A stretch of 60,694 nt of DNA, the filler included, from Nemertoderma westbladi (lineage: Eukaryota; Animalia; Xenacoelomorpha): assembly GCA_032718475.1 (NCBI GenBank). It is 2 parts of 2 records of this genome, joined end to end, with 100 filler letters (N's around TTAATTAATTAA, not from the genome) between each part and the next. Parts side by side here need not be neighbours in the genome. Positions count along the whole stretch, not along the records: positions 1 to 29,298 come from JAUCBJ010003324.1; 1 more part is not named here. One strand, 5' to 3'. The translations under genes and the position numbers were made by a program. Under the pieces are notes generated by a model. It was not told the DNA's origin and ran no database searches. It was given only the letters and a program-made list of their open reading frames with translations. This document shows, piece after piece, positions 1 to 51,972 of this stretch; within the stretch, counting starts at the first letter, position 1; every line of letters begins with the position of its first letter.

Positions 1-400
1 CATAGAATAACTAGAGTAACTAAACTAAACATAAATTAGGATGAACAGGTGGTCACGGGTTCGATCCCTACTCGCGACCATTATAAATCCAACACAAAAT
101 AAGTTAAACCAGGGTTCGAATCCTAATCATGAAAATATAAAAAGTAAACATAGAATAACTAGAGTAACTAAACTAAACATAAAATAGGAAAAACAGAAGG
201 TCATGGGCTCAATCCCTATTCGTATCCAGTTTTATGGAAAATAAACAGGAGGTCATAGGTTCAATCCCTACTCGCGACCATTATAAATCCAACACAAAAT
301 AAGTTAAACCAGGGTTCGAGTCCTACTAATGCAATTATAAAAAGTAGGTAACACGGATGCTCACGGATTCAAACCCTACTCAGGGAAAAATAAAAACCAA
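1..400 (+). repeat. Degenerate repeat array with six B-box-like / tRNA T-arm motifs
   Basis: GGTTCGATCCC (58-68), GGTTCGAATCC (113-123), GGCTCAATCCC (206-216), GGTTCAATCCC (258-268), GGTTCGAGTCC (313-323), GATTCAAACCC (366-376). Block 1-34 recurs at 149-182 and block ~44-124 recurs at ~244-324. Confidence 0.8.
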
Positions 401-448
401 CACAAAATAAATAATATAGTAAACTTTCATGTATACCATAGTAAATAG

Positions 449-964
449 CTAATTTAATAATAAAGTTTGTAAAATAGATAATGATTCAGGGAATTCACCG
501 GCTGGACACATGGAAACGATTTTATTACTATGAAATACACTGAAATATGCACGTCCTATATATATTCTAATCGCGCAAAATAATTCGGGGGTATAGCTAA
601 TAAATATTGCTTTATTATTAATTGTATGATGTCCACATTTTTTCATTAATAATTTAAAATTAACACTTGGAAAAATAATAGTTCGTGTTTCGGTATTAAG
701 TTTCAAATTTTGTAATTGCATCCCGATAGTTTGTTTTAAATAAAGCAATTCACTAGCTAAATTATTGCACAGGCCTACAATTGTTACTGCGCCGCTGGGA
801 AATAGCATTATAGTTGAATCGTCACCTTTGTAGATAAACATGTTTGGTTTTAAGCAACTTTGACCTGTAATTTGCTGTGAAATTTTATCTAGTTCAAATT
901 TGGCAATGTTTTTTCCGGTAAACTGTTTATTGGTTATTTCTATTTTGTTGTCCAATTTCTTATT
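449..964 (-). CDS. TBP: Divergent TATA-box-binding-protein (TBP)-like protein; probably the 3' exon of a spliced gene
   Basis: Two TBP-fold repeats. EITN...MLFPSGAVTIVG resembles LQN...LIFSSGKMVCTG. LKLN...SYTPELFCAIRIY...FSVFHSNKIV resembles FKIQN...SYEPELFPGLIYR...LIFVSGKVV. The ORF track starts at a TTG; the frame is open up to a splice acceptor TTATTTTTCTAG (AG at 966-965). Confidence 0.75.
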   Translation of the reverse strand, partial: NKKLDNKIEITNKQFTGKNIAKFELDKISQQITGQSCLKPNMFIYKGDDSTIMLFPSGAVTIVGLCNNLASELLYLKQTIGMQLQNLKLNTETRTIIFPSVNFKLLMKKCGHHTINNKAIFISYTPELFCAIRIYIGRAYFSVFHSNKIVSMCPAGEFPESLSILQTLLLN

Positions 965-978
965 CTAGAAAAATAAAA

Positions 979-3900
979 TTAAATCCTAGTAGGGGGGATT
1001 ACTATTCGTTTCGCCGGTCTAACAAGCTTAGTGCTATAGTGTCCGTATGGTTTGCTGCTATATTTACTACTCCAATATGATTTCGTATCCCAGAGCGTTA
1101 GTGCCTTCTTATAGACATGACCAGTAAAAATTTGATGCTTTCTAGAAGTGAAGGTAGAGTTATAGCGGAAGAGCATTGCCTCGTTTTCAAAACAGTCTGC
1201 ATAATCCTCGTGTGTTAGTTGCTTAGCGACAACCGATCTAGATACTCCTTTGGCGGTTTTCTTGATTGGGGCATCATAGGATTGAAAACTGTAGACCTTT
1301 GGTTTAAGGAAAACCCACTGTTTATACTGCAAACCGCAGCTCTCATCTTTTATGAAGCCGAGAGCCGCTTTGTGTTTAATGGTATAGAGTGGATGTGTTG
1401 TACTGTAGTTGGAAGTATCTAGGAAACCACCCTCAAACATTGCCCGTAGAAAGGTTAGCTGTGGTGTATTAGTTACGCTTAGCATTAGAGAATCCGTGTC
1501 ACCGGCTAGACAACGAATCTGGCAATCCAGTTTTTGTTCTAGAGGCTTCAGTTTGTTGTAAAATAGGTCGTACATCTGTAGCTTAGATAGATCTAGTATA
1601 GTGCAACCGATGAACACGCCCTGATTTAGGCAAACAGCCTCTTTAGTGAAAGTATGACCACTCAAGTTGGGGGTAAATACAACAAACGATTCGTGATTGG
1701 GCTTGGCTAAGAGCAAATCGCATTGTTCGTCGCTATTGCATAACCTGAAAGAAACGCGGTCTCTAACCTTTTGGAGGCATTTCCCATACAAGGCATTGTT
1801 CATCAACTTATAAAATAGGACCTCGAATGGGTTATTTGCCGACTGTCTTTTATTTGTATTAAAACTAATGTAGTCCTTGAAAATATATTTTTGCGAGAAA
1901 GAGTAGACCCTATGTACTTGTGTAAGTTTAAGACCGAGCTTCAAATAGAGTTGAAGTAGCTTAATATGGATACCGTATTCAACCTTATTAAACTGATGTA
2001 GTAGTAGCTTAGTACAGGTATCGTTGTATGGTCTACAGGTAGCCGTATCGGTGAGATTGTAATGCTCCCAAAGATCTTCCATGTATTCGCTAAGAAAGGA
2101 TTTAGGGACTGACATCTTCTCCGCTCCTAGAGGCAGATCGGCGGTCAAATCATGAATTTCTTTCGGATAATGTAGATCAACTATGCAATAATAACCAGTA
2201 TCCCCACTCGCGTCTACTGTAGCTAGGTCTATGGGGGTAGTTACGAGTTTAATATTAGCGTATGGAAGTTTCTGGCTCAGGGCGCAGCCGTAAAGGTTAT
2301 TCGCATCGATGGGAATTAGATATTTCTCGGGGAGACTGGAGTCATAGTCGGGTTTATCGGGGATATTTGCGTCTACGGAATGTGTATTCAAGAAAACTAG
2401 ACCTCCCCTAATATTTGCTTCAAAGTCCGAGTAGATGGAAGCGTCTGATAGTAATTGAATTTCTGATTGCGTGAATTTCAGCGCTGCGTCGTAAGTTAAT
2501 CCAGGGGCAGTGAAGTACATTACGGGCTCGAGTCCATAATTAGTAAGACAGAGGGATCGGAACTGCTCGAAAGTATCAGCCAATAGGGTAACATCTAGAA
2601 CCAAATAGCCAATCATATAGTCAAAGATTGTTAGACAGTTTAATTCATCCCAAGTAGTAAGCGCGCGCTGATAGTTTTCTGCGCTACATTGTTCCAATTT
2701 GAGATCATTATAGAAGCTTTCTAATGGGGGGAGTGTAGTTTCGTATAGGTTTGAAATATTTTGAATGTAGGAATATGGGAATACGCCCTTGTTTTTTATT
2801 GTGTTATCGCTAATGTTGGGGTAGAGTTGGGTCATTTGAGCTAGTGTATGGGGTATGGCTGTTGCTAGGTTACTGTTATTTTTAGTGAGATAGCTACTAA
2901 GATTATCTAGGCTGGCAGTCATAAACTGATAGGAATCTAGAAAATTAATGGAGATACTTTCTTTAGCGTTGGCTGTTGGTGTACTCGGATCGATTGGGAA
3001 GCTAACTTTAAGGTGAATATAAGTTTCGGTGTTTTTTGGTATTACGGTCATTTTCCAGTGTGTTCTAGAACTATCGGTCATTCCTTCTTTTAGTAGTAAA
3101 TGCATATCGAATTTCCTCAGGTTATGAAATATAATATAAAAATTATTCCGTTTTAGGGAAAGTTTCCTGTTGCAGCTGACGCAAGCAGCCCCCCGATACT
3201 CCCCGCTATAATGATCGTGATCGCGGACTTTGGTGCTGAGATTGTCATTGAGGTTTAAATTATGAGAATCGGGGGTTAAATTACAGTTGCAGACGTAGCA
3301 TTGTGTAGCGTTATTAAAGTCAGTTTGTTGGCTAGTAGTGAGTTGCATGGGGGCGTGCGTGTTTGTACTAGAAATGGACCAATCGTATAACTCCCTACAA
3401 TGACTTTCCATAGCGGTTAGAAAGTCGCGCATTACGTGGTTACTGCCATCGTCGCGGAAAATTTGAACATCTGTTTTAGGAGGGTTAATTAATTTTTGAT
3501 TTGGTACTGTATAAAAGGCTGCCGCGCTAGCTATATGTTTCTGTGGGAGTTTAATATTGTTTGTAGGTTCTAGAATAGTTTCAATGTCGGCGTATATACA
3601 GAAAGGCGGGGATAGAGTCTTATCGTACCTATCAAATTTAACCAAGAGATTTTCGGGCATATACTCGAGTTGGCGTTTACCCGTATAGCAACGCTCTCGA
3701 TGTTCTTCCAATGATTTGTCAGTGTAAAAGCCTCTGAGACAGCGTTCGCAGTGCGTCTTGTTACCGTTAGAATCTTTTGAATTTATTAATCTATCTATGT
3801 TAGTAATAGCTACGTAGTGGGCAGGGTTTTTGGTTGTGGCTTCGATAAATAATAAGTTTAGTACAGTTTTACCGGAACAGTGCGCGCTATCTGGTTGACT

Positions 3901-5031
3901 TAGAATGGAGAGTTCTTCCGTATTACTCCAATAAAGAAGGTTTATGCAGTATATAGGGTTGGCTTTCAGAAACTGGGGAATACCAGTTACTCTGTCCACC
4001 GGAAAACTTAAATTCGAAAAATCAAACATGTTTAGGAAAGGAGTAAACGTTGAAATTCTACTAATATTATTTTGTTTTCTATCAATTTTCTTATAATTTG
4101 CGGCGGCCAATACTGCATATTTAAAGCATTCCCCCAGCGGGCAGTCTACGCTTACGGTACATTGTTTATTTAATAATAATTTAGATTTATTGAAGCCTTG
4201 ACCCTTTAAATAGGGGTTGCGTTGGGAACGCGCAATCTCAATAGTTATTCGCTCGATGGCTATTATGCGCCAACCCGAGCCGAGACAGAGAAACACGCTT
4301 AACAGTTGATCGATACGATTGACGGCGCTAGAAAACCAGTTATTAAAGTCGCTATTATTCAGAATTTGATTATTGTTACCGCTAGATTTAAAACAGAAGG
4401 ATTCAATTTGAAAACCCTCGCTGGTTTCACGCTCCATTACGATGTTGATTGTAAGCCAGACTCTTAAAAAAGTTCCCATGGCACTACGTAAATGGCTACT
4501 AACGTGTTCTTGAATGTGTGGAAAATTTTCGTTTAAAGTTAATTCTGCGTCGAGTCTTGTTTCTGCGAGGTCGTTGTTATAGGTAAACAGTCGTCCGTGT
4601 GCGCTTCCGTTGGAGGGTGGTTGAAATGGATTGTTTGGGGAAATAGAATCTCGCGAAGTTGAAGGTTCGTTATTGGAGCCGCCGCCGCCGACTTGTTCTG
4701 GAGTAGAGTTGATGGGGGATGAGTGGGAGGTAGTCGGAGTTTTGCGTTTCCGCGAAAAAAGTCGAGTGTAGCATTCATGCCCAGAAAAGGATGATAGGGT
4801 GAGCGAATCCCCGCAGCGGCAATCGGCTGGCTCGTTTACGTAACTAAATCCTGTTCCCCCCTGAGGACACGAAGCAAGATGGCCAACCAGCGTCTTCTTT
4901 TCCGAAGACCAAGTCGGACAGCAGTCGCATCGATATTGCACGAAATGAGTTTTAATATGGCGAGATAAATTATCACTCCGCGTCTCTTTGTTGCAGATGG
5001 GGCAGCTGACTTTATTGGTAGACATAGGCAT
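979..5031 (-). CDS. pPolB: Protein-primed family B DNA polymerase (Polinton/adintovirus type), 1350 aa, with N-terminal zinc fingers and an inserted EndoVII/HNH-like domain
   Basis: ExoI YADIET, ExoII FHNLRKFD, KGVFPY, ExoIII YLVLDV, motif A DANNLYG, motif B KLMNNALYGK, motif C GDTDS. Also a GSGW motif, C2H2 finger CPIC..HIKTH, CERC..HRERC finger, and CYVC..RDHDHYSGEYRGAACVSCN (EndoVII-like, ~3165-3302). Uninterrupted ORF. Confidence 0.95.
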   Translation of the reverse strand: MPMSTNKVSCPICNKETRSDNLSRHIKTHFVQYRCDCCPTWSSEKKTLVGHLASCPQGGTGFSYVNEPADCRCGDSLTLSSFSGHECYTRLFSRKRKTPTTSHSSPINSTPEQVGGGGSNNEPSTSRDSISPNNPFQPPSNGSAHGRLFTYNNDLAETRLDAELTLNENFPHIQEHVSSHLRSAMGTFLRVWLTINIVMERETSEGFQIESFCFKSSGNNNQILNNSDFNNWFSSAVNRIDQLLSVFLCLGSGWRIIAIERITIEIARSQRNPYLKGQGFNKSKLLLNKQCTVSVDCPLGECFKYAVLAAANYKKIDRKQNNISRISTFTPFLNMFDFSNLSFPVDRVTGIPQFLKANPIYCINLLYWSNTEELSILSQPDSAHCSGKTVLNLLFIEATTKNPAHYVAITNIDRLINSKDSNGNKTHCERCLRGFYTDKSLEEHRERCYTGKRQLEYMPENLLVKFDRYDKTLSPPFCIYADIETILEPTNNIKLPQKHIASAAAFYTVPNQKLINPPKTDVQIFRDDGSNHVMRDFLTAMESHCRELYDWSISSTNTHAPMQLTTSQQTDFNNATQCYVCNCNLTPDSHNLNLNDNLSTKVRDHDHYSGEYRGAACVSCNRKLSLKRNNFYIIFHNLRKFDMHLLLKEGMTDSSRTHWKMTVIPKNTETYIHLKVSFPIDPSTPTANAKESISINFLDSYQFMTASLDNLSSYLTKNNSNLATAIPHTLAQMTQLYPNISDNTIKNKGVFPYSYIQNISNLYETTLPPLESFYNDLKLEQCSAENYQRALTTWDELNCLTIFDYMIGYLVLDVTLLADTFEQFRSLCLTNYGLEPVMYFTAPGLTYDAALKFTQSEIQLLSDASIYSDFEANIRGGLVFLNTHSVDANIPDKPDYDSSLPEKYLIPIDANNLYGCALSQKLPYANIKLVTTPIDLATVDASGDTGYYCIVDLHYPKEIHDLTADLPLGAEKMSVPKSFLSEYMEDLWEHYNLTDTATCRPYNDTCTKLLLHQFNKVEYGIHIKLLQLYLKLGLKLTQVHRVYSFSQKYIFKDYISFNTNKRQSANNPFEVLFYKLMNNALYGKCLQKVRDRVSFRLCNSDEQCDLLLAKPNHESFVVFTPNLSGHTFTKEAVCLNQGVFIGCTILDLSKLQMYDLFYNKLKPLEQKLDCQIRCLAGDTDSLMLSVTNTPQLTFLRAMFEGGFLDTSNYSTTHPLYTIKHKAALGFIKDESCGLQYKQWVFLKPKVYSFQSYDAPIKKTAKGVSRSVVAKQLTHEDYADCFENEAMLFRYNSTFTSRKHQIFTGHVYKKALTLWDTKSYWSSKYSSKPYGHYSTKLVRPAKRIVIPPTRI

Positions 5032-6065
5032 CTTGAATCTAGAAAAATAAGTTGATTATTCGTAAAAAAAAAATAAAAAATACTGTATACTTGCTAAAAA
5101 TAAAGTAAAACAGTAGGTATTAATCGGTTACTAGGCAACAATACTGTGTTTATATAGTTAGGCCTATTGCTATATTGTAGCAATCAGTCAGTGAAACATA
5201 AAGCAGGCAGTCGGCAGTATCTAGTGTGGAAGTGTTAGTGTACCAGCGGTCAGATAGTGGCGATAGCCAAGACACAAAAGCGATGCCAGTTATTATTCGT
5301 GGAAAGAGGGTCTATAAACAGCAGTCAGTCAGTGCAGTAGTGCTAGTGATATAGTCTGCTACAAGTCAGACGTACCGGTAGCGTTAACCAATAGAAATCA
5401 ACGATAGGCTTAGCTAATCGCTGTGTGAGATCTCAGTTAGTCAGTAGGATATATAGTGAAAACTGCAGTATTCATTGTTGTTCAGTAGGGTCTATATCGT
5501 TACTACAGTGGCACTAGGCTAACTCGAATGATGCGGTACCGATAGTCAGGTAGACAGGCAGATAGACAGATGTAGGCCTATTGATCGAATGCTTCGATCA
5601 CGGTTTAGGCTATCGGTATCACCGCAGTCTGATAGTAATTAATAATGAGCCTACTGCAATACTGTTGTACCGGTAGACATTAAATGTAAATTGTTTGCTA
5701 CCGGCATCGAAAGTATAGCTAGATAGTGGAAGGCAGATTTTACTTACGGTGTTAGTAAATATTCACGGAAAGATGAAGTTCGCGAAGAAGTTGGTTGACG
5801 TGGACGACGAGAGAGTTTATTAATCGATAGAGCGGAATGGTAGGTATCGGAAGAATATTACGCGGCGGATACGCGGAAAGTTTGTTGTCGACGATGAGCG
5901 TTAACGCGGCGAAATGACAATAATACAACTCTACAAGTGGGTTGTTGACTGATGATAACAAATAAATATTCTTAATAAATAATATTAAATTCGAAAACAA
6001 AATAATGGTAAATGATGTTAATTGTAAATTGCAATTGAATTAATGACCTAATATATTGATGGGGA

Positions 6066-6190: not shown

Positions 6191-6764
6191 TCTCCTGTTG
6201 ATTCTATATTAGAAACCCCTGTAGGCATCTTGACTAATTATGTTGAGTTGGCTGTATAACAGAAGCAGGTCTGGTGCAAAGGAAAGGGATTACTAGAGAG
6301 GAATGCGTGATTAAAGGCGCTTCATTGTTATGATACGGGCTGCCTGGATATAGGAAAGGGGCAAAGCGACGCCGGCTATGCCGAGAACAATGGAGGGCCG
6401 CTTGAGCATTAGCCTTGGGCGATATACGGATTTGCTGTAGTCAAGGCCGCCTGGCGCCATTGAATAATGAAGACAAAGGGGCTGCTAACAGACGGGACCG
6501 CTCATTTATATTTGCCTTGGGGGTATACGTATAGAAGATTCACTGCATGTTGTATCTAGTTAATGAATAATGAGGACAGAGGAGGGGCCCCCCCCGCCGA
6601 TGAACGCAGTTGATAGTTGCCAGTAGGGAGCCGTATACCATAGCCATTATAAAGTTAAAAATAGATATTATGTCATAGTGATCTCGTTGGTAATATAAAA
6701 ACTAATTAATCTAAAAATAGAAATCAATGTATAAAGTAAAAGTAATATATACAATTAATTAATT

Positions 6765-7550
6765 TAAAATAAAGTACAAATGAATAAATACGAATAAAAT
6801 AAAATGCAAATAATTAATTAAAATTAGGTACAAATAAATAGTTAAATTGAAAATAACAAAGTTAGAGAAGATGTTAATTTTCAGATAATACGCCCTCTAG
6901 CGGCAGACTATGGAACTGCAGGCGGTTGGATATATGTAAGAGTAATTAGTAATCAGAGCTGTCACGGGGTGGGGGGGGGGCAGGGGCGCTTGGATACAAC
7001 TATCATTAATATGCTCTTGCTTGGTTAAAGCTAATTGAGGGGTCAAAGGTCAACGAAAAAGCTGTCTGGATATAGATAAGAGTAATTAGTTACCAGTAAG
7101 GGAGCTGTATACCCATAAAGTACAAATGAATAATTAATATAAAATAAAGTACAAATGAATAAATAAAGTAAAATAAAATACAAATAATTAATTAAAATTA
7201 GGTACAAATAAATAGTTAAATTGAAAATAACAAAGTTAGAGAAGATGTTAATTTTCAGATAATACGCCCTCTAGCGGCAGACTATGGAACTGCAGGCGGT
7301 TGGATATATGTAAGAGTAATTAGTAATCAGAGCTGTCACGGGGTGGGGGGCAGGGGCGCTTGGATACAACTATCATTAATATGCTGTTGCTTGGTTAAAG
7401 CTAATTGAGGGGTCAAAGGTCAACGAAAAAGCTGTCTGGATATAGATAAGAGTAATTAGTTACCAGTAAGGGAGCTGTATACCCATAAAGTACAAATGAA
7501 TAATTAATATAAAATAAAGTACAAATGAATAAATAAAGTAAAATAAAGTA
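6765..7550. repeat. Tandem duplication (~370-374 bp unit, 2 copies) in the Polinton subterminal region
   Basis: CGCCCTCTAGCGGCAG at 6891 and 7265, GGTCAAAGGTCA at 7041 and 7411. The copies are near-identical apart from poly-G length. Confidence 0.95.
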
Positions 7551-7623
7551 CAATTAATTAAAATTAAATATAAATAAATAAGTATTAATGAATAAAAGAG
7601 CTGCGGTGTCACTTATGACACCC

Positions 7624-7929
7624 TCTTGCTCCTCTCGGCGACAGTTAGACATCACTGATGACCCATTGTGTGTCAGGGCGCTAATCAGTCTGATTAATTA
7701 GGATAATCAATTAAACCCTAATTAGGAGTCATATGACACCTGTTAGGGTTTAATTGTACTAATTAATTGATGACACCTGTCAATTAGGGTCTAATTAGCC
7801 TAATTGGGAGGTGTCAGCCAGACAGTCTGGCGCCAATGACACCCAATGACACCCATAGGGTGATAATTGGGTGTCATATGACACCCAATGGGTGTCAGTG
7901 AGGTCTAACTGTCGCCGAGAGGACCAAGA
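7624..7929. repeat. Terminal fold-back (inverted arms ~7624-7675 / ~7879-7929) with multiple TGACACC motifs
   Basis: TCTTGCTCCTCTCGGCGACAGTTAGACATCACTGA pairs with TCAGTGAGGTCTAACTGTCGCCGAGAGGACCAAGA (2 mismatches). Perfect palindrome ATTGGGTGTCATATGACACCCAAT at 7866-7889. Confidence 0.9.
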
Positions 7930-9765: not shown

Positions 9766-11675
9766 CAAATTCACTTGTACAGGTATACAAAATTTTGAAG
9801 CTTTGCATGCGATATTTTTGATCTTATTGAATTTTGGCTATATTCCTATAGTTCTGGCCCATACTACGCTATCAAGCAGTCCCCAATCTGCGTTCACAGA
9901 GGGTCGTTGATATAGGTGGTATTTATAGTACAATAACGATCTGCGTTTGCCATGTGTTGTCGTCTCCAGCTGCCATTTTTCGCGCCATTTCAAAGCTCTA
10001 TTCCACATGACGTAATAAGTTATGTTGAAGTAAACCGTGATAAGCACGATGAACTGGAACTCTGACAATTAACCCCCTAGAGGCAGACAGGAGCTGTAAA
10101 AGTCTGTCTGTGTGTAGAATTTCTAAACTTGTGATAGACTACATGTGTACCAAGTTTGGATCCATTTCATCCATGATTGACTGACTTTAGCATTCAAACA
10201 TTCCTGCCAGCCGCAAACAAACAATGACTAATCGTTTCATCGAGCAGAACTCCAGTGATAAAAGTTTGAAGAGGCGCTGATTTGGGCCTACCTGCTGCTT
10301 ATGTGAAGATTAATATAATCATATACTCCCAACACTCATATTTCCCTTCTCAATTTACCTCCAAAATCAGACTACATTGGTCTCGGGAGCATAATTAAAA
10401 AAGCAGCCCAAACCTACTCCCTGCCATCACTTTCAGTCCTACTCAACTCTCGCTACTGCTCAAAGCAGCTGAGGGGACGCATCTGTCCTGGAAGCTTGAC
10501 AGCAGCCGACAAGTCGGCAGTATCGTTTATTTCGAACAGTTACCTAACCCTAACTGGCTCGTTTACTGCAAAACACCGTCGTATCCTAGACTACTTCCAC
10601 ATAGTCTGAAGTTTAGCGTGCAGATAATTAGTTATAGAGAAACTATCCTAAACTATGGTGACGTCATAATATAATTCTATGCTGAAAATACAAAATACTT
10701 TTGGTGCCTTTGCTTAGCTGTACGTTGTGCAATTTTACTCATCGGATTAGCCGATTTTTACCTGGATATAACATACTAACGTACTGCCAACATTGTGTTA
10801 TTGTGCATTTTAAAAATATCAAATTTATTTTATTAAATCAATGATATATTATATAATACCTAATTTACTCGTTACCTTATATATATCCAACATGTGCGAA
10901 GGATACCGAACGCGATACCGAATCGATACCGAACGCATTTCCCCTTTTAGTTTTCTATCGCCTTGCTATGGATTCTGTTTTAAAGTCAGTGCAAGATATT
11001 CCAATAGAAATTCGACAAATCCGAAAAGGAAAGTTTTAATTTACCCCGAATTGTATATTTAGCTATTACGAACAAAACAAATTCTACATTAAATTAAATT
11101 AAACACACAAAGTATTAATTCCCATAGTTGATGATTGTAACGAGATGTGGCAAATGTTTTGAAAAATAATGGGTAAAGGGGGAAAATGGTCACAAAGGCA
11201 ACTTGAAAAAAACGCGTTTTACTGTATTTTTTAACTTTTATAATGGGAAATGAACAGGTTTCCCCTCTTGAGCCCTTGTTTTCTCTTCATGACCACTTTC
11301 CCCCTTACTTGAAACAATAGCAATTGTTAAATAACAATTTAATGTCAAAAAAAGAAAATAAATATAATTTACATAATAATCCAATGTGATCAGGTTCTTA
11401 GTGTAACGACTAAGTCATTTATGGGGGAAGGGGGAATGCTCACAAAGTAAGCAATAATACGGGTTTTAGTACGAGTTAATACGAGTTATGATCATCGCCA
11501 TGAAACCCAAATAACATATACTTTGTGTTTTGATAGAAAACTAAAGAAAAAATTGCCAATCATTAAAAATATAGACCATGATATAACGCAACTAAAAGAC
11601 CAAAGTACTTAGGGCAATCACTACGCAATTTATGAATTCAAAGCAAATATTGCGAGTTTTATAAGACTGGCTTTA

Positions 11676-14435
11676 TTAAACTGCCTGAGTATCCTTCCAA
11701 TATCTCGAATTCAGTCTGACCGCTGAACGAATATCTGATTGGGTTATTGGAGTCTGAACCTGAGTACTGGCCTCCCTCATCTCATTACAAATACCAGTTT
11801 CTGTATCCAAACAGCTATTGGATATTTCTGCATCGAAAGCACCATCTAATAATTCACTATCTAACGCTCTATCAGTTATCTCCCTCACTGGTCCCAGAAT
11901 TTCAGCACAATTTGGAGGTTCTTGAACTTCATGGGATGTATTCCCAGCATTATTAGCGTTAGAACTCGAGAACTTAGGGACAATAGAAGCTGCCCATTTA
12001 TTAGAAGGCGATGTATATTTACTACTGGCGCGTTTCGGACTGTTCTGCATTTGCGAAATCGGGAGTTTAATCAAATAAGAAGGTTTGTTTGGACTTTTTA
12101 TCGGTTTAATTTTAGGAGCCTGAGGAGACATTTTGCGATGGGCGTTAGGAAACCCCGGTATTTGCTCCTGTATCCATTTAATAATGGGTGTATCTTCCTG
12201 TATCTGTTTCAGTATATTTTGTCTGGGAGGCGCCATCAAATCGTCGACCCCCAGTGGTTCCGTCTCCCTACCCTCATCCTCTGCGCGCAGCCCACCCACC
12301 ATGGCAGACTCCATCTGCTGCAGACTGGCGGCCAGACGCTGAGACACGGGATTGGGCCAATCCTGTTTCCGTTTCCGCTGGCCGCCTATCATTGGCGGAG
12401 AGCTGAAGTCCCCTTTCCCAGGGGAATCAGCCATGCCTCTTTGCCAGAGTGAGTTCTGGCATCTATTTATTGCATCATTGAGAAAGGTGCCCGATGCTTC
12501 TCCCATGGTTCCGGGCGATTCTCCCATGGTTCTCGGCGTTTCTCCCATGATTCCGGGCGCTTCTCCCCTGGTTCCGGACGTTTCGTCCACGGTCCCGGGC
12601 GCTTCTCCCCTGGTTCCGGGCGTTTCGCCCAAGGTCCCGGGCGATTCAGGCGTCAGCCGTGTGGAGGAGTTACCCTTGGGACGGAATGCAACTATCCTGA
12701 AATTTCCGCGGCCCAATTGGCGACCGGGGATTAGTCGGTTGCTAAGCAACCGTGTAGTGACTCCCGCAGGAGCTTCGGTAGATGACGTCACGCCCGACAC
12801 ATCGGACTGTATCGTTACGAAGTCGCCCTGGGGTAGCGGCGGCCCGGTGTCGCATGCGAGATAATTCGATGGATTAAATTCCCGCATTAATTGATTCCCT
12901 TCTGAGCCGATAGGAGGCGGTTCGGGGTAATTATCCCCCTCCATTCGGGGGGAATGACACTCCCCCATATATGGGTAAGGGGGGCAATTACCCCCCTCAT
13001 ACAGGGGGCCCTGCCTACAAGGGACTCTGTGCATCGGCCCCCTTGTACGAACAGCCCCCCGGCCCCTGATAGAAGCGAAACGCTGGTAAACATTACGGGA
13101 GGGGGGCGAGATCAGGGGGGAATCGTGGGACGCGGGGCTGCTGAAGGGGGGTTCATCGGATTGGGGGGTCCGCGGGTTGATTTCCCCCTCCTCTATGACG
13201 CACTCGGTGAGGCTCCCGATGGACTGGAGTCCGGCGCCGAGACGCATAGAGGGGGAAGGGATCCCCCCTACCGATGGTGCGTGGGGGCCGTAGATAGGGG
13301 AGCCATCGGGGGTTGAGGGCGCATCGCCTACACTCCCCCCATCTGGTCCCACAGATAAACTCATACACTGTCTGTCCCACCCTCTGCCTGCCTTCCCTAC
13401 CTTCACCATCCCCTGCTCGCCCTTCCCACCCCTCCACCCTCCCCTCTTCCCGCCTCCACCCCCTCCCTTAGCCCCCGGTATGTACCGAACCGATATCTTC
13501 CTATCCAACTTGGTCTGCCTCCGATGTTGAGGGTAGACCTCCACCATCTGGTAGATCTTATGGGCGTTCCTCCCCTTCTTAATGCCGTCGCTCGCGAGAC
13601 AAATCATATCGGGAAGCGAGTTCAACGCGCACCGGAAGTTCGCCTTCCAACTGCCCGGGTTCTCCGCGTCCTTCCCGGGGATATACTTCCCGGTGTGCAA
13701 CGCCCACTCCCGGTAAAGTTTCCCGTCACCCAGACGCCATTGGGTACCCGAGCGGTGTTTCCAAGGCAGCGTAAATATCCGTTTGTCCCGATCGATCCAG
13801 TATAAATCCTCTATTTCGCCGGAATCAATCCACATCTCGAGCCACGGTCGCAGTCGCAGTCGACGCGAGTACGAGACTTCGTCATCTCCGCTCGCCTCGC
13901 CACTAACACTCCCCCCTTCGGGTACAACGCATCCCTCTGTATCCTCCGGACATCGTCGTTCGGTGTAACGATGGTCTGACTGGTAATATTCCCGAGGAGT
14001 CATCTCCTCGATTCGTGGGTCCACCGCATCCCCGCGTACCGATAACTCGTGGCAACCCGCCATCGGTAAATTCACTCCTTCGAAATTAGTTTCACTTTCC
14101 ATTCCTATCATGTTAACCGCGGTAGGCGGAGCTGTTGTGTTGATATCGTCAAAGTCGGAGGTGTCAAAGACGTTGACGTTCAGCTGAAACGGATCAAAAT
14201 CTTCTTGGAAGGGGGCCAAATGAGATGCGGATGAGAACATATTGGTAGGCCTACCCGGCGGACCAAAACCCACATTCGCTGACGACGGAATTTGAGAGTG
14301 ATCCACAGATCCATAATCATCTAAAGGTTCAGTTTTTATTTCGCGAGTGTGGCGAACAATTCTGCAATTAACAACCGGTCCGTAAGGACCAACGTTGACG
14401 TGCGATTCTGGAGCAATGTTGTCGGTGTAATCCAT
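11676..14435 (-). CDS. IRF: Interferon regulatory factor (IRF1/IRF2-group) transcription factor, 919 aa, single coding exon
   Basis: Tryptophan-pentad DNA-binding domain at ~13866-13540: RLRPWLE..W..IFTLPWKH..W..WALHTGKY..PGSWKANFRCALNSLPD..KIYQM. It closely matches the IRF1/2 pattern (RMRPWLE, PWKH, WAIHTG, WKANFRCAMNSLPD). ATG-to-TAA ORF with no interruption. Confidence 0.92.
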   Translation of the reverse strand: MDYTDNIAPESHVNVGPYGPVVNCRIVRHTREIKTEPLDDYGSVDHSQIPSSANVGFGPPGRPTNMFSSASHLAPFQEDFDPFQLNVNVFDTSDFDDINTTAPPTAVNMIGMESETNFEGVNLPMAGCHELSVRGDAVDPRIEEMTPREYYQSDHRYTERRCPEDTEGCVVPEGGSVSGEASGDDEVSYSRRLRLRPWLEMWIDSGEIEDLYWIDRDKRIFTLPWKHRSGTQWRLGDGKLYREWALHTGKYIPGKDAENPGSWKANFRCALNSLPDMICLASDGIKKGRNAHKIYQMVEVYPQHRRQTKLDRKISVRYIPGAKGGGGGGKRGGWRGGKGEQGMVKVGKAGRGWDRQCMSLSVGPDGGSVGDAPSTPDGSPIYGPHAPSVGGIPSPSMRLGAGLQSIGSLTECVIEEGEINPRTPQSDEPPFSSPASHDSPLISPPSRNVYQRFASIRGRGAVRTRGPMHRVPCRQGPLYEGGNCPPYPYMGECHSPRMEGDNYPEPPPIGSEGNQLMREFNPSNYLACDTGPPLPQGDFVTIQSDVSGVTSSTEAPAGVTTRLLSNRLIPGRQLGRGNFRIVAFRPKGNSSTRLTPESPGTLGETPGTRGEAPGTVDETSGTRGEAPGIMGETPRTMGESPGTMGEASGTFLNDAINRCQNSLWQRGMADSPGKGDFSSPPMIGGQRKRKQDWPNPVSQRLAASLQQMESAMVGGLRAEDEGRETEPLGVDDLMAPPRQNILKQIQEDTPIIKWIQEQIPGFPNAHRKMSPQAPKIKPIKSPNKPSYLIKLPISQMQNSPKRASSKYTSPSNKWAASIVPKFSSSNANNAGNTSHEVQEPPNCAEILGPVREITDRALDSELLDGAFDAEISNSCLDTETGICNEMREASTQVQTPITQSDIRSAVRLNSRYWKDTQAV
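12490..12650 (-). repeat. 21-bp coding tandem repeat inside the IRF ORF (heptad G-E-x-P-G-T-x)
   Basis: ESPGTLGETPGTRGEAPGTVDETSGTRGEAPGIMGETPRTMGESPGTMGEASGT in the translation. Confidence 0.85.
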
Positions 14436-15874
14436 ATTAATCTATCCACATTGCTATCGTCATAGGATATCGCCTGCGTTCTGGCGTTAGATCGTTAGGC
14501 CTAGGACATTTAGAATTACAATGTTTTTATCAATTACGAATATTAATTACTGAATTAACATATCGATAATCATGACAGCATGACCGAAATCGCTACCGTG
14601 ACCGTACCGCCCGCGTTGCCGTACGCTACATAAATGCAACATACCGATACTGGTACCGGTACTGCAGTACTGTGCTAGAAGTGGAAGTTATTGAGTAACT
14701 TCAGAACTATCAGTTTACCGTACCTACCGGTTTTGTATTCCTGATAATAAAATTAGGCCTAGCCTACCTACCTCAGTACCTGTATTGTATTACTTTTGTG
14801 GTAGATTAAAACATAGCACAGACAACTACTAAGTACAGTGTTGTAGTTAGCTAATAACGTAACGAAACGATGTAATTGTGGGGCGAGCCACGAAATTAGC
14901 AAAGCCTTAGCATAGGGATAGGGGTACCATTAACGATTTTTTTTGCTGTCGTCGGCGTAGTTATCGCGCTGCAGTTATTCTTTAAGCTTTATGGTTGGTT
15001 GATAACACTACCTAAGATGTATGCATTCGAAAGTGACATATTGTATTGACATTAGCACAGTGGCGTCGCGTAGGTGTGGCGTGGGGGGGGGGGGGGGGGG
15101 GGTGATTGAAAAATAGACGTAAATGAAGACAAGGTGATTAATTAATTACAAGATTATTTAAAATCACTTTATATTTATATTTATTTTTTATTAGCCAAAA
15201 ATAATTGTTAATATAAGAAGTATTCAACGGATAGTGCAAAGCGCATAGGTCTACTAACAAGAGGTAAACAACCTACAGCCATAGTATGATATCTTTGCTT
15301 ATGATTTGGTATAAACCGTAATGGGCGTCCAAAATATGATAACGGGGAAGTTTTATAAAAACACGGATCACTCGAATTTTGGTAATTGCTGGATGCAACA
15401 GTGCTAAATAAGTATATGCAAAGTAGGAATCCTAATCTATAGTAGTAGGACCTAACTCTCTCAATAGCTAATGTAGCTCACCAGTAAATAAAGTAGTAGG
15501 CCTATATTATAAACAATGACGGACATTGCAGTGAACTATATATCACTCAGGTGGGATTCTCATAACTCTGTAAAGTAAAGTCTACATTAGAAACAATAAA
15601 ACTTCTTGAGAACTAGGCTAGCTCGGATGATATCAATTGTACTGTATGCTCTAAGTGTAAGATTATATACCCTACAGCTGTTGTACTGTACACAATATCT
15701 GCAATTAGTTACATAAAGGGATATGTATGTCATCAATATTCCTAATGATATGATTAATTAAGAGTTGAGAACGTCGATAAGATGACGTACTGTAGGCCTA
15801 ATATAACAAAATTGCGTACATTATTGTATCAAGGTAGATTATTCAGTGTTAAAAACCATTTATATAATGTGTTC

Positions 15875-17406
15875 GTGAGTTCGGGATTGAGCCAAGGCGT
15901 GAGTTCGGAACCGAGCCAAGGCGAGAGTTCGGGATCGAGCCAAGGTGTGAGTTCGGGATCGAGCTAAAGCTTGATTTCGAAACCGATCCATGGTGTGAGT
16001 TAGGGATCGAGCCAAGACGTGAGTTCGGGACCAAGCCAAGGCGAGAGTTCGGGATCGAGTCAAGGTGTGAATTCGGAACCGAGCCAAGGCGTGAGTTCGG
16101 GATCGAGCAAAGGCGTGAATTCGGGACCGAGCCAAGGCGAGAGTTCGGGATTGAGCCAAGGCGTGAGTTCGGAACCGAGCCAAGGCGTGAGTTCGGGATC
16201 GAGCCAAGGCGTGAGTTCGGGACCGAGTCAAGGCGAGAGTTAAGGATTGAGCCAAGGTGTGAGTTCGGGGTCGAGCCAAAGCTTGAATACGAAACCGAGC
16301 CAAAGTGTGAGTTCGGGATCAAGCCCAGGTGTAAAGTCGGGATCGAGCCAAGGCTTGAGTTCGAAACCGAGCCAAGGTGGGAGTTCTGGATCGAGCCAAG
16401 GTGTGAGTAAGGGACCCACCCAAGGCTTGAGTTCGGGACTGAGCCAAGGCGTGAGTTCGAAACCGAACCAAAGTGTGAGTTCGGGACAGAGCCAAGGTGT
16501 GAGTTCGGGATCGAGCCAAGGCTTGAGTTCGAAACCGAGCCAAGGTATGAGTTCGGGATCGAGCCAAAGGTGTGAGTTCGGGACCGATCCAAGGCTTGAG
16601 TTCGAAACCGAGCCAAAGTGTGAGTTCGGGACCGAGGCGAGGCGTAAGTTCGGGACCGAGCCGAAGCGTGAGTTCGAAACCGATCCATGGTGTGAGTTCG
16701 GGGTCGAGCCAAGGCGTAAGTTCGAAACAGATCCAAGGTGTGAGTTCGGGACCAAGCCAAGGCTTGAGTTCGGGACCGAGCCAAGGCTTGAGTTCGAAAC
16801 AGAGCCCTTGAGTTCGGGACCGAGCCAAGGTGTGAGTTCGGGATCGAACCAAGGCGTGAGTTCGAAACCGAGCCAAGGTGTGAGAACGGGACCCATCCAA
16901 GGTAGGAGTTCGGGACCGAGCCAAGGCGTAAGTTCGAAACCGGGCCAAAGTGTGAGTTCGGAACCGAGCCAAGTCTTGAGTTCGGGACCGATCCAAGGTG
17001 TGAGTTCGGGATCGAGCCAATGCGTGAGTTCGAAATCGAGCCAAGGCGTGGGTTCGAAATCGAGCCAAGGTGTGAGTTCGGGATCGAGTCAAGGCATGAG
17101 TTCAAAACCGAGCTAAGGTGTGAGTTCGAAATCGAGCCAAGGCGTGGGTTCGAAATCGAGCCAAGGTGTGAGTTCGGGATCGAGTCAAGGCATGAGTTCA
17201 AAACCGAGCTAAGGTGTGAGTTCGGGATCGAGCCAAGAAGGCGTGAGTTCGAAACCGATCCAAGGTGTGAGTCGGGGCCGAGCCAAGGCTTGAGTTCGAA
17301 ACCGAGCCAAGGTGTGAGTTCGGGACCGAGCCAAGGCTTGAGTTTGGAATCGAGCCAAGGCGTAAGTTCGGAATCGAGCAAAGGCTTGAGGTCGAAACCG
17401 AGCCAA
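15875..17406. repeat. 24-bp minisatellite (consensus ~GAGTTCGGGATCGAGCCAAGGCGT), ~63 copies
   Basis: Direct tandem periodicity; it generates the 8-aa-repeat ORFs seen in several frames. Confidence 0.97.
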
Positions 17407-44849: not shown

Positions 44850-46351
44850 TACTACTACTACTACTAGGATCGGCATGCTGCATTGCAGCTGCATTTTTAA
44901 GAATGCTGTGCCGGCTTATCGACAAAATTGCACCGCCACAACTCCCTATCACCCATGACATTTGCTAGATCATCCGCATCTTCAAGGCCAGTGTCCTTTA
45001 AGATGCGTCTCAAGAAAGTCATGGGCTGTCCACCATGCTTATTCACTCCATGAGGCTGCCAAAGTACAAGATTATGCACTGGCTGGTCCTCACGGCGAAA
45101 GCAATGTCCTGCAAAGCGGAGGCGATTTTGTTCTAGTGTCAAGCTTGGGGGAACCAATGAGACACCTCCAATGTTATATAGTGTCTGGTTGGAGATGTGT
45201 GCATTGAACTTGACACAATGAACCCGGCGTAGCATTCTTGTGAATGTGCCGTCCAGAGATTTGGTGTCCTCAGCAGTTAGAGCCCAGCATGGACTCCCAT
45301 AGAGGAGTACTGGAACTACTGCTGCTCTAAATAACCGGACCGTAAGTTTCCGATTAATTCTCGGTGACTTCCAAATCCTGGAAAGCCTATTCAAGGCTGC
45401 CCATGCCTTTCCCTTACGTATTCGAAGGTCCTCACCTGACTTCCGGATCCATGATCCCAGGTAACAGAAGTCATCCACATGCTCAAGCATACCATCTTTT
45501 GAGCTTATGCTCATCCGATCAGAGACTTGCTGAGGACTTTCAAAGTTAACTGTCAAAATTTTGGTCTTTCTGGAGTTAATAAAAAGATCAACACTAGAAG
45601 CAGCATGTTCTAATGAGCTGAGGAGCCGTTGGGCTCCCTCTAGTGATTCTGAGAGTACTTCTAAGTCATCAGCAAAGTCTAGATAAAGTTAGGTAATTGG
45701 CAGGATTTCCTCGACTTCTGGAGCCAGTAGGTGGAGTTATCATCACCCCATCATCATTATGATAATCTAAGGACATGCGTAGAACATAGTCAACAACAAT
45801 TATGAACAAGAATGGTGCAAGTGTGTCTCCCTGGAGGACGCCCCATAACACTTCAAATGGTTCTGTGTCACCGGCAACAGTAGACACAAATGTTGTCGAA
45901 CCATCGTATACTGATCTGATTGCTGCAATAATTTCATCAGGAATATAATGAAAGTATGCTGAACATACGTGAGCGAGAGACTGAATCAAAGGCCTTGAAG
46001 AAGTCAACAAATATAACAGCCAGATGCCTGTCTTTCTTTTTTGATAACTCTTCAATTATCCTTCTAAGTGCCAAAATGGGCTCCATGGTCCCACGACCTT
46101 TACGGAACCCATTCTGATTTCCACGTAGCAGTCTCTCAATGGGATCCCTGATGCGATTTAATATAATTCTATTGTATAGCTTTGCAGCAATCGAGATGAA
46201 TGAAATTCCCCGAAAAGAACCATAGAGTGTTAGGTTGCCCTTCTTGGGAACTGGCACCAACTTATTTGTTTTCATTTCTTGTGGGACTCTTGTCGTATGG
46301 TACATGTCTACTATGATGGGATAGATGAGCTTTAAACACTCAGGTATTTTA
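44850..46351 (-). mobile_element. 5'-truncated, frameshifted RTE-like non-LTR retrotransposon (RT domain)
   Basis: PVPKKG, QNGFRKGR, FVDFFKAFDSV, GVLQGDTLAPFLF, FADD, FCYLGS, RLRFAGHC. (TAG)n 3' tail. TSD ACAGCGCATAC at 44839-44849 and 46352-46362. Confidence 0.9.
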
Positions 46352-46405
46352 ACAGCGCATACCATACTGTAATACACAGCAGTACAGCGCATACCATACT
46401 GTAAT

Positions 46406-50479: not shown

Positions 50480-51972
50480 ACTCCAAAGAAGCATTAAAAG
50501 CATGTCCAATAATAAAGCGAGTGGATTAGATGAAATCCCAGCGGAGGTATGGAAAACCGGAGTGCTAAATAGACCATTATTGAATGTTTGCAACCGGATG
50601 TTAAAAGGGGAAAAGCCACCACCAATTTGGACTAAAGGTCAACTAAAGCCTCTCCCCAAGAAAGGAGACCTCGGCATACCAACAAACTATCGTGGGATCT
50701 GTCTGCTTGTGGTAGCTGCCAAAATATACAATAAAATGATTCTATATAGGATTAGGCCTCACATAGAGAAACTACTGCGTAAGAGCCAAAACGGATTTCG
50801 ACCAAGTAGATCAACAATAGCTCAGATACTTGCACTACGGAGACTGATTGAAGGAATTAAGTCAAAGAATCTCCCCGCAGTCATGACTTTTGTGGACTTC
50901 AAGAAGGCATTCGACTCCATCCATAGAGGTAAAATGCTTGAAATCCTAAGAGCTTATGGAATACCAGAAGTAATTGTTGCTGGCATTGGATTGTTATATT
51001 GTGACACAGAAGCGCAGGTACTCTCACCAGATGGTGAAACTGAGTTTTTCTCAATCCTGGCTGGCGTACTGCAAGGTGACACATTAGCACCATTACTATT
51101 TGTAATTGTGCTGGATTACGCAATGAGGACGGCCACAAAGGGTGAAGATCTGGGATTCACACTTCAAGAACGCAGAAGTAGTAGATATCCGGCAACTACA
51201 GTCACAGACACCGACTTTGCGGATGACATCGCCCTGCTCTCTAATACGCTAGCAGATGCACAGCTTCTACTAAATAAAGTGGAGAGGGCTGCTAAGGAGG
51301 TTGGATTGCATATAAATGCTACCAAGACCGAATTCATGACCTTTAATGTTGATGGAAACTTGACAACCATTGATAATAATCAACTAAGGAAGGTCGATGA
51401 CTTCCAGTACCTTGGATCATGGATAGAGAGTAGCAAAAAGGACATAGAAGTTAGGAAAGCAAAGGCTTGGGTAGCTCTATCAAAAATGGATACCATCTGG
51501 AAATCAGATCTCTCCAGGCACCTGAAGACTAAGTTCTTTCGAGCCACAGTGGAAAGTGTATTTTTATACGGGGGTGAGACCTGGACACTGACTAAATCAC
51601 TTGAACAACGAATTGATGGTTGCTACACAAGACTACTAAGGGCAGCCCTAAACATCAGCTGGAGACAACACATGACAAACGCCGAGCTTTATGGTACAAT
51701 ACCACCTGTATCAACCACCCTCCGTGAACGCAGATTAAGATTCAGTGGGCACTGCTGGCGAAGTAAAGACGAGGTCATACCATATCTACTTCTCTGGCAA
51801 CCAACTCATGGAAAGTGTAGTCGTGGACGACCTGCCATAACATATATAGATCAACTTGAAAGGGATACTGAACTTGGAAGAAACGAAATTGCGACAACTA
51901 TGGAGAATCGGGAAGCCTGGAAGGATCTCATTTCCACTGTCCGAGTTCGCTCGACCAAGTAGTAGTAGTAGT
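50480..51972 (+). mobile_element. 5'-truncated RTE-like non-LTR retrotransposon, apparently recent
   Basis: TSD AATGTG at 50474-50479 and 51973-51978. (AGT)n 3' tail directly after the stop. Inserted antisense within the CR1/L2-like element. Confidence 0.92.
50502..51962 (+). CDS. Reverse transcriptase domain and C-terminus of an RTE-like ORF2 (endonuclease lost by 5' truncation)
   Basis: KASGLDEIP, PLPKKGDL, NYRGICL, QNGFRPSR, FVDFKKAFDSI, GVLQGDTLAP, FADDIAL, FQYLGS, RRLRFSGHC, GRP. 486 codons with no stop. Confidence 0.93.
   Translation: MSNNKASGLDEIPAEVWKTGVLNRPLLNVCNRMLKGEKPPPIWTKGQLKPLPKKGDLGIPTNYRGICLLVVAAKIYNKMILYRIRPHIEKLLRKSQNGFRPSRSTIAQILALRRLIEGIKSKNLPAVMTFVDFKKAFDSIHRGKMLEILRAYGIPEVIVAGIGLLYCDTEAQVLSPDGETEFFSILAGVLQGDTLAPLLFVIVLDYAMRTATKGEDLGFTLQERRSSRYPATTVTDTDFADDIALLSNTLADAQLLLNKVERAAKEVGLHINATKTEFMTFNVDGNLTTIDNNQLRKVDDFQYLGSWIESSKKDIEVRKAKAWVALSKMDTIWKSDLSRHLKTKFFRATVESVFLYGGETWTLTKSLEQRIDGCYTRLLRAALNISWRQHMTNAELYGTIPPVSTTLRERRLRFSGHCWRSKDEVIPYLLLWQPTHGKCSRGRPAITYIDQLERDTELGRNEIATTMENREAWKDLISTVRVRSTK

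Follow-up and report, generated by a model that had tools for sequence, protein, structure and literature searches.

The left end of the window (the whole stretch of 60,694 nucleotides of Nemertoderma westbladi DNA analysed here) carries a degenerate tandem array of B-box-like words, which is a fixed part of what appears, from its polymerase and the gene neighborhoods of its relatives, to be an integrated, multi-copy Polinton-type element in an animal genome. Our leading, though tentative, reading of this array is that it forms a B-box cluster lacking A-boxes, which would dock the host TFIIIC and would likely serve as a chromatin barrier rather than as a source of transcripts. Under such a mechanism, a tRNA or SINE-head fragment would have given rise to a tandem repeat inside the element, units keeping the B-box word would offer DNA docking sites for the host TFIIIC, and the docked TFIIIC cluster may then act, and be favored by selection, as a barrier against silencing of the integrated element. 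The TBP-like protein encoded next to the array probably lies outside this docking mechanism. The array and its words are as follows:

1..413, plus strand: degenerate higher-order tandem array, recovered by repeat search, by self-BLAST and in contigs of the runs X1, X3 and X4; the window edge cuts the array
58..68, plus strand: B-box-like word of unit 1, long type, 19.4 bits
113..123, plus strand: B-box-like word of unit 2, short type, 21.7 bits
206..216, plus strand: degenerate B-box-like word of unit 3, departing at tRNA position 54, 5.8 bits
258..268, plus strand: B-box-like word of unit 4, long type, 15.6 bits
313..323, plus strand: B-box-like word of unit 5, short type, 22.4 bits
366..376, plus strand: degenerate B-box-like word of unit 6, departing at tRNA position 53, 3.6 bits

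A preliminary description of this DNA had noted six GGTTCRANNCC-like words here. All six are present with at most one mismatch to GGTTCRANNCC and all lie on the plus strand, starting at 58, 113, 206, 258, 313 and 366, with word-to-word spacings of 55, 93, 52, 55 and 53 bp; GTTCRANNC is matched exactly by four of them. Dinucleotide shuffles of 1-420 (n=5000, both strands) gave a mean of 0.097 words and a maximum of 2, and three or more were never seen. The array shows registers of 200, 148 and 52 bp, with a basic unit of 52–55 bp, and contains two types of unit, long and short, the flanks of which differ widely while the B-box is kept in both. The six words are copies of this one repeat unit, and therefore count as a single origin rather than six. 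The scores listed above derive from a weight matrix built from 536 ARAGORN-called phage tRNAs (training-set median 21.0 bits, 5th percentile 12.7), which is a prokaryotic matrix, the T-loop consensus of which agrees with the eukaryotic B-box as given in the available text of PMC12498455. By this measure the words of four of the six units lie in the tRNA score range, and units 3 and 6 fall outside it since their 5.8 and 3.6 bits are below the 5th percentile of 12.7; the earlier count thus stands in number and strand, but not in quality for these two. Many B-box-like words, on both strands, were also encountered in a 24-bp satellite at 15874-17406, which served as a chance control.

The array is integral to the element. 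Positions 1-5100 are present whole or in part in five runs, and three of these contain at least half of the sequence words of this region. Contigs of the DNA runs X1, X3 and X4, which come from three studies under the same organism label, cover parts of 1-1300, including the array, and those of X3 and X4 (two studies) pass from the array into the TBP-like ORF. One X4 contig covers 290-720 at a depth of 72, and X3 contigs over 340-422 and 393-616 have depths of ~2020-2034, similar to the depths of 1843-2122 for contigs of the TBP gene. One of the array-bearing runs may be the source of the window, with the bridging being seen in two studies. An insertion of a host SINE or satellite into this copy alone, which the preliminary description had named as a finding that would undo its proposal, is ruled out by the array-to-gene contigs of X3 and X4 and by the gene depth, because such contigs occur in the runs of two studies and the array is thus joined to the gene in other samples as well. 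The array is also rearranging, and its contigs show 40-bp skips and a 160-bp go-back. The summed depth at the first B-box is 7.6-15x the single-contig depth over the gene, a ratio that is not a copy number, and gives a rough hint of a longer array, with more units than those seen here, to the left of the window edge. Self-BLAST detected neither a recurrence of the unit elsewhere in the 60 kb window nor an inverted copy of the array in it. With such an inverted copy absent, we discarded, as far as this window goes, the possibility that the array belongs to a terminal inverted repeat. A further run, X5 (another organism label, and RNA by our guess), contributed two contigs, both over 1037-1300 and neither on the array, which have no bearing on expression.

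The two genes of the element seen in the window, and the short elements that precede them, are:

449..964, minus strand: divergent TBP-family frame, 171 codons stop to stop, recognized by profile and predicted fold
965..976, minus strand: 12-mer similar to a 3' splice site, immediately preceding the TBP-like frame
979..5031, minus strand: protein-primed DNA polymerase B (pPolB), 1350 aa, Pfam DNA_pol_B_2 E=1.2e-18
5039-5050, minus strand: identical 12-mer, before pPolB

The pPolB has an N-terminal C2H2 zinc finger and an endonuclease VII-like domain, both below the Pfam cut-off, and 428 homologues at E<=1e-30, of which the named ones are from invertebrate genomes. Its best-scoring metagenomic relatives adjoin rve integrase, packaging-ATPase-like and pX-like genes, and the earlier assignment of the element to the Polintons is supported by the pPolB match taken together with the integrase and packaging-ATPase-like neighbors in these best relatives. 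None of the 9 window ORFs scanned is an rve integrase, ATPase, protease or capsid gene; the element runs off the left edge. The splice-site-like 12-mer occurs at only these two places in the window, each time on the minus strand, and its position ahead of both genes hints at splicing or a leader exon common to them as its possible role. The pPolB genes of two relatives, L134 and L141, show a pyrimidine tract and an AG before the ATG. A late-promoter box of the TAAGA type did not stand out in these two relatives: the 70 nt preceding 27 of their ORFs contain TAAGA once, TATAAG once and TATAAA four times.

The remaining window is made up of satellites, reverse-transcriptase ORFs and an IRF-domain ORF. 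The latter (11676-14435, minus strand) is an uninterrupted ORF of 919 aa with an IRF DNA-binding domain (Pfam E=1.7e-29), is GC-rich and contains an internal 21-bp repeat; an IRF this long in one ORF may have arisen as a retrocopy or be carried by an element. At 6756-7561 there is a 370-bp tandem duplication (97% match) with a direct repeat of AGGTCA-like half-sites, which we take to be nuclear-receptor DR1-like, and at 7624-7929 a MITE-like segment of ~305 bp with 35-nt inverted repeats at its ends (94%). The reverse-transcriptase ORFs at 50502-51962 (plus strand) and 45937-46392 (minus strand) match Pfam RVT_1 and resemble LINE-like host retroelements.

The frame adjoining the array had earlier been described as TBP-like and as facing the words. 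The words are on the plus strand and the frame, with its end at 449, is on the minus strand, so that the two are indeed convergent. Its first ATG occurs only at codon 42, and the ORF alone gives E=0.0012 against Pfam TBP (PF00352), below the cut-off; single-sequence searches with it returned no matches and its single-sequence fold had a pLDDT of 30.6. Its family was reached via the neighbors of pPolB, with L134 (the best relative) first and then L135 and L141: the L134 gene lies downstream of the polymerase and matches the Pfam TBP at E=4e-12, and L135 and L141 likewise carry a TBP gene. A four-sequence TBP profile led to 306 proteins, and an HMM of 59 of them, with the window ORF left out, scores the window ORF at E=3.9e-13. 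The TBP family of the relatives matches solved TBPs at E about 1e-26. A fold model from 124 sequences (pLDDT 83.4, pTM 0.68) predicts a two-repeat saddle, and each of its listed PDB matches with E<0.001 is either a TBP chain or an entry that contains TBP, with TM about 0.5-0.64. Going by the profile and the predicted fold, the neighboring gene is a divergent TBP, in agreement with the earlier description. At 5 of the 18 columns examined, two of them in the stirrup region, the window protein differs from residues that are near-invariant in the family. In cellular TBP the stirrup region contacts TFIIB-like factors.

The TBP-bearing loci rank 1, 2 and 6 among the 108 pPolB relatives of the window. 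At least three members of this family of short TBP-like proteins (306; P0121-P0240) are Polinton-borne, namely those at L134:7815-8402, L135:5194-5739 and L141:14633-15142. TBP searches of viral and genome contigs gave at least three further loci: L214 and L216, which resemble large-virus contigs by their ORFs (judged by eye), and L215:1-3352, which is filed in a bacterial MAG, has a Polinton-type TBP along with ORFs like the packaging ATPase and pX (by eye) and is possibly a mis-binned Polinton. A TBP-labelled gene in MELD viruses with an adintovirus-like PolB has already been noted in the available text of Starrett et al. 2021 (PMC8502044).

We observed that change in the array is unevenly distributed. 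Over the six units, the match to the column majority is 96% for the eight core columns of the B-box (52-56, 58, 61 and 62), 56% for its degenerate columns (57, 59 and 60) and 68-70% for the flanks. Position 57 varies within purines only and position 60 within pyrimidines only, as allowed by the consensus GGTTCRANYCY in the available text of PMC12498455; purines are swapped at 57 in three of the six units and C56 is unchanged in the units and in the listed contig variants, small as these numbers are. Invariant columns account for 6/8 of the core and 4/12 of the others, a difference that is not significant (Fisher p=0.085) and that comes from non-independent units, and the columns 63, 64 and 66, which are not part of the B-box, are equally invariant. 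A core base is broken in two of the six units, and degenerate units are common in the family because most of the contig depth on unit 3 carries the departure at 54. Places varying between contigs make up 4/66 positions inside the B-box 11-mers and 19/354 elsewhere in 1-420, and are thus not rarer inside them. The sequence pattern is suggestive of a B-box core kept by selection.

The proposal that two of the units read as tRNA 3' halves did not hold up. The T-stems are mostly broken, with units 1-6 having 3, 3, 5, 4, 3 and 2 of 5 pairs, and the sole unit with all five pairs has a degenerate loop. The CCA of units 1 and 4 is out of register, at tRNA positions 72-74, whereas in the training tRNAs it starts at 74 (254 cases) or 71 (33 cases). 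An Rfam scan of 1-1000 that allowed E values up to 10 gave no tRNA matches; unit 4 taken alone gave, at best, a truncated tRNA-Sec match (11.5 bits, E=3.1), and ARAGORN called no tRNA over the whole window. The four long-type units contain a variable-loop-like word in the tRNA register, with scores of 3.4-6.7 bits (null 99th percentile 3.8). This is suggestive of a tRNA or SINE head as the seed of the repeat, to be counted as one event noticed post hoc. A B-box and a variable-loop-like word in this register are likewise found in tRNA-derived SINE heads and satellites. Unlike tRNA-derived SINEs, the array shows no A-box above chance and no SINE body or tail, and its unit travels with the element. 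Features in the array that bear on transcription are:

3-14, plus strand: A-box-like 12-mer with one mismatch, 55 nt upstream of unit 1; not above chance
48..82, plus strand: imperfect hairpin of unit 1, z=-3.32, pairing the 'variable-loop' word with the ...GACCA end
151..162, plus strand: A-box-like 12-mer with one mismatch, 55 nt upstream of unit 3; not above chance
230..233, plus strand: T4 run, Pol III terminator-like, directly after unit 3; the only T4 on the plus strand in the array

The earlier remark that no A-box is evident is borne out in that the best A-box scores in the array stay within the null, which is not an absolute absence: a one-mismatch A-box-like 12-mer is expected by chance at 25% per unit, and no exact match to the A-box was found 30-90 bp upstream of the B-boxes. 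In the interval 151-233 an A-box-like 12-mer is followed 55 nt on by a B-box-like word and then by the T4, the B-box there being weak (5.8 bits). There is one T4 terminator for the six units and not one after each. The hairpin of unit 1 is not kept in units 3, 4 and 6 (z = +1.21, -0.33 and -1.20), and none of eight longer folds of the array had a z-score below -1.8. Thus the units would be docking sites rather than RNA genes, because the B-box is kept, the A-box is not above chance and no RNA fold is shared.

The preliminary description had further envisaged that the TBP-like gene and the B-boxes could be one system. A survey of 28 viral and 80 metagenomic pPolB loci related to that of the window speaks against a conserved system of this kind, with a B-box cluster in none of these 108, including the three that have a TBP gene. 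The power of this comparison is limited since all 108 loci are distant (26-38% pPolB identity) and only 33 of them extend at least 3 kb downstream of pPolB. Strong B-box words number 21 in 852 kb of these relatives, with no same-strand pairs within 300 bp. Tandem arrays do occur in 23 of the 108, all of them without a B-box (best score 3.3 bits). In a relative of L141, L151:6820-7047 is a 30-bp tandem array, without a B-box, just downstream of pPolB. As to the loci with a TBP gene, neither tRNA-like matches nor B-box words of >=12.7 bits occur in L134 (16.8 kb) or in L135 (5.7 kb, with its TBP gene at the contig end); the contig names of these two begin with the same prefix, and the two are possibly not independent. 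L141 has a divergent tRNA-like pair, at 10000-10061 (minus strand) and 10156-10227 (plus strand), between pPolB and other genes. By Rfam, one of the two is complete (61.7 bits, GCA anticodon) and the other is without most of the anticodon arm (36.8 bits), and each is followed by a T4-T5 run. Beside this pair, L141:10568-10750 (plus strand) has a weak match to the drz-agam-2-2 ribozyme (24.7 bits, gathering 38; E=0.019). A TBP gene can thus do without a B-box array, because L134, L135 and L141 bear the gene but no such cluster; the tRNA-like genes of L141, as a lead only, keep alive a weak version of the idea linking TBP and Pol III.

Rfam covered 43 of the 108 pPolB loci, with L204 left out for its size; it gave no match on 32 long loci in whose examined DNA a TBP gene is absent, and no tRNA on nine further loci. 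The presence of TBP was taken from a six-frame HMM search of all loci. The 80 metagenome loci contain 263 ORFs of 110-400 aa, 143 of which were scanned against Pfam. The long unit had no exact match in viral contigs, and a scan of viral contigs for B-box triples gave 105 loci, none with a tblastn match to pPolB or to the window TBP; among the matches listed, these comprised clusters of phage tRNAs, CRISPR-like arrays, and repeats that are coding or simple. Lowered-threshold ARAGORN made 357 calls in 110 loci, which were noise and were discarded. In the phage tRNA clusters (L034, L044, L061 and others, ~5001-5130) the T-loop words lie 33-55 nt apart, too close for whole tRNAs, and may mark unannotated small RNAs.

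Several known systems provide a context for the array, and are compared here as they appear in the available portions of the sources cited. TFIIIC binds the B-box alone at nanomolar affinity and the A-box weakly (PMC12409998), the placement of TFIIIB needs the A-box (PMC11724288), and barriers are formed by B-box sites without TFIIIB or Pol III (PMC12409998; PMC3395662). On the strength of these accounts of B-box affinity, A-box role and barriers, an array of strong B-boxes lacking A-boxes would most likely be a TFIIIC docking cluster. The closest likeness in layout is to the S. pombe IR-L and IR-R elements, in which about five B-boxes in about 330 bp stand outside tRNA genes; in 327 bp of an IR element, five B-boxes are bound by TFIIIC but not by Pol III and play a part in boundary activity (PMC4502379). 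However, the IR elements are chromosomal and their function has been tested, whereas the array is a tandem repeat in a mobile virus-like element, known from sequence. ETC sites of yeast and mammals resemble it in having a B-box without a working A-box (PMC12409998; PMC3395662; PMC11724288) and, as compared by description only, in conserved bases that run on 3' of the B-box, corresponding to array columns 63, 64 and 66. They differ in being single, dispersed and, as these sources describe them, conserved between species; the array is found in runs of one organism label but in none of the 108 distant relatives, with no close relative among those compared. The adenovirus VA RNAs, the TMERs of MHV68 and the BLV miRNA cluster share with it same-strand B-boxes clustered in non-coding viral DNA (PMC12498455), but have, in the same account, A-boxes, terminators and structured transcripts, whereas the array has no A-box above chance, one T4 and no shared fold. 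MELD viruses are alike in combining a Polinton-type element with a TBP-like gene, and some are flagged with predicted tRNA genes; in the available text of that account (PMC8502044) those flags are on viruses with other replicases, and neither a B-box array nor a link to TFIIIC was found for MELD viruses. In the literature searched, which most subscription journals lie outside of, no Polinton was described as carrying a B-box array.

The most serious rival to docking, which we consider possible if rather doubtful, is a neutral internal satellite, in which slippage and unequal exchange multiplied a tRNA or SINE fragment after a single capture, so that the B-box is inherited and unselected. The derivation of all six words from one unit, the variable-loop-like sequence in register as a pointer to a tRNA-like seed, the rearrangements seen in the contigs (40-bp skips, 160-bp go-back) and the B-box-free tandem arrays in 23/108 relatives are all in keeping with such a satellite, as are the conservation excess of p=0.085 and the abundance of core-breaking units; that B-box-like words also arise in unrelated repeats, such as the 24-bp satellite and the CRISPR-like and coding repeats, weighs against docking. 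A neutral satellite sits less well with a core at 96% against flanks at ~70%, with the concentration of change in the degenerate positions, and with the swapping of purines at 57 in 3/6 units while C56 never changed, the last being a matter of small numbers. A cluster of Pol III small-RNA genes with degenerate A-boxes, comparable to VA RNAs, gammaherpesvirus TMERs and BLV miRNAs, appears unlikely. The layout of A-box-like 12-mer, B-box-like word and T4 in 151-233 and the stable hairpin of unit 1 (z=-3.3) would fit it, as would the two tRNA-like genes, each with its T run, of the TBP-bearing L141, and viral A-boxes can be highly degenerate (available text of PMC12498455). Nevertheless, the A-box scores are within the null, a one-mismatch 12-mer has a 25% chance per unit, the unit in that very layout has a B-box of 5.8 bits, the hairpin is missing from three of the four long-type units with no longer fold below z -1.8, and a single T4 and no significant Rfam match were found; with no A-box above chance, no conserved fold and one T4 run, the suggestion of VA-RNA-like genes made in the preliminary description finds no support.

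Both remaining alternatives assign the array to proteins of the element itself. It is very unlikely that the units are iterated sites for one of its own proteins, be it the pPolB zinc finger, the TBP-like protein or the product of an unseen gene, serving replication or packaging with an incidental likeness to the B-box. A conserved block from column 48 to column 67, which takes in the non-B-box columns 63, 64 and 66, and the below-cut-off N-terminal C2H2 finger of pPolB are consistent with such sites, but the variation follows the degeneracy of the B-box, and the window holds no inverted copy of the array, as a terminal repeat would give. TBP folds bind AT-rich DNA and the word in the array is GC-rich, which counts against sites for the TBP-like protein in particular. 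The least probable of all the readings considered is a joint system, in which TFIIIC on the array recruits a TFIIIB containing the TBP-like protein of the element, or the pair acts as a decoy for the Pol III machinery. The adjacency of array and gene, and their linkage in other samples, can be cited for it, along with the occurrence of Pol III-type elements in the window and in one of the two long TBP-bearing relatives (L141) as against 0/32 long loci in whose examined DNA a TBP gene is absent. It is opposed by L134 (16.8 kb) and L135 (5.7 kb), which are without a tRNA-like match or strong B-box, and by the departures of the window protein at 5/18 columns, two in the stirrup region. A broader conjecture, which we regard as quite unlikely, is that TBP-bearing Polintons in general tap the host Pol III machinery: some would do so with tRNA-like genes, as in L141, and in the lineage seen here an amplified B-box array would load TFIIIC on each copy of the element, shield integrated copies from silencing and, where copies are many, titrate TFIIIC, with the divergent TBP entering or blocking TFIIIB.

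Should the array be neutral, it would be an ordinary internal repeat, and the by-products of its analysis would be a confirmed Polinton TBP family and the tRNA-like pair of L141. If, as we tentatively favor, TFIIIC does bind the array, a heterochromatin barrier would be brought along by a mobile virus-like element itself, a type of barrier described until now at loci on chromosomes, namely the S. pombe IR elements, ETC sites, tRNA genes and SINEs. It would suggest a way, open to testing, in which integrated Polintons could evade silencing.
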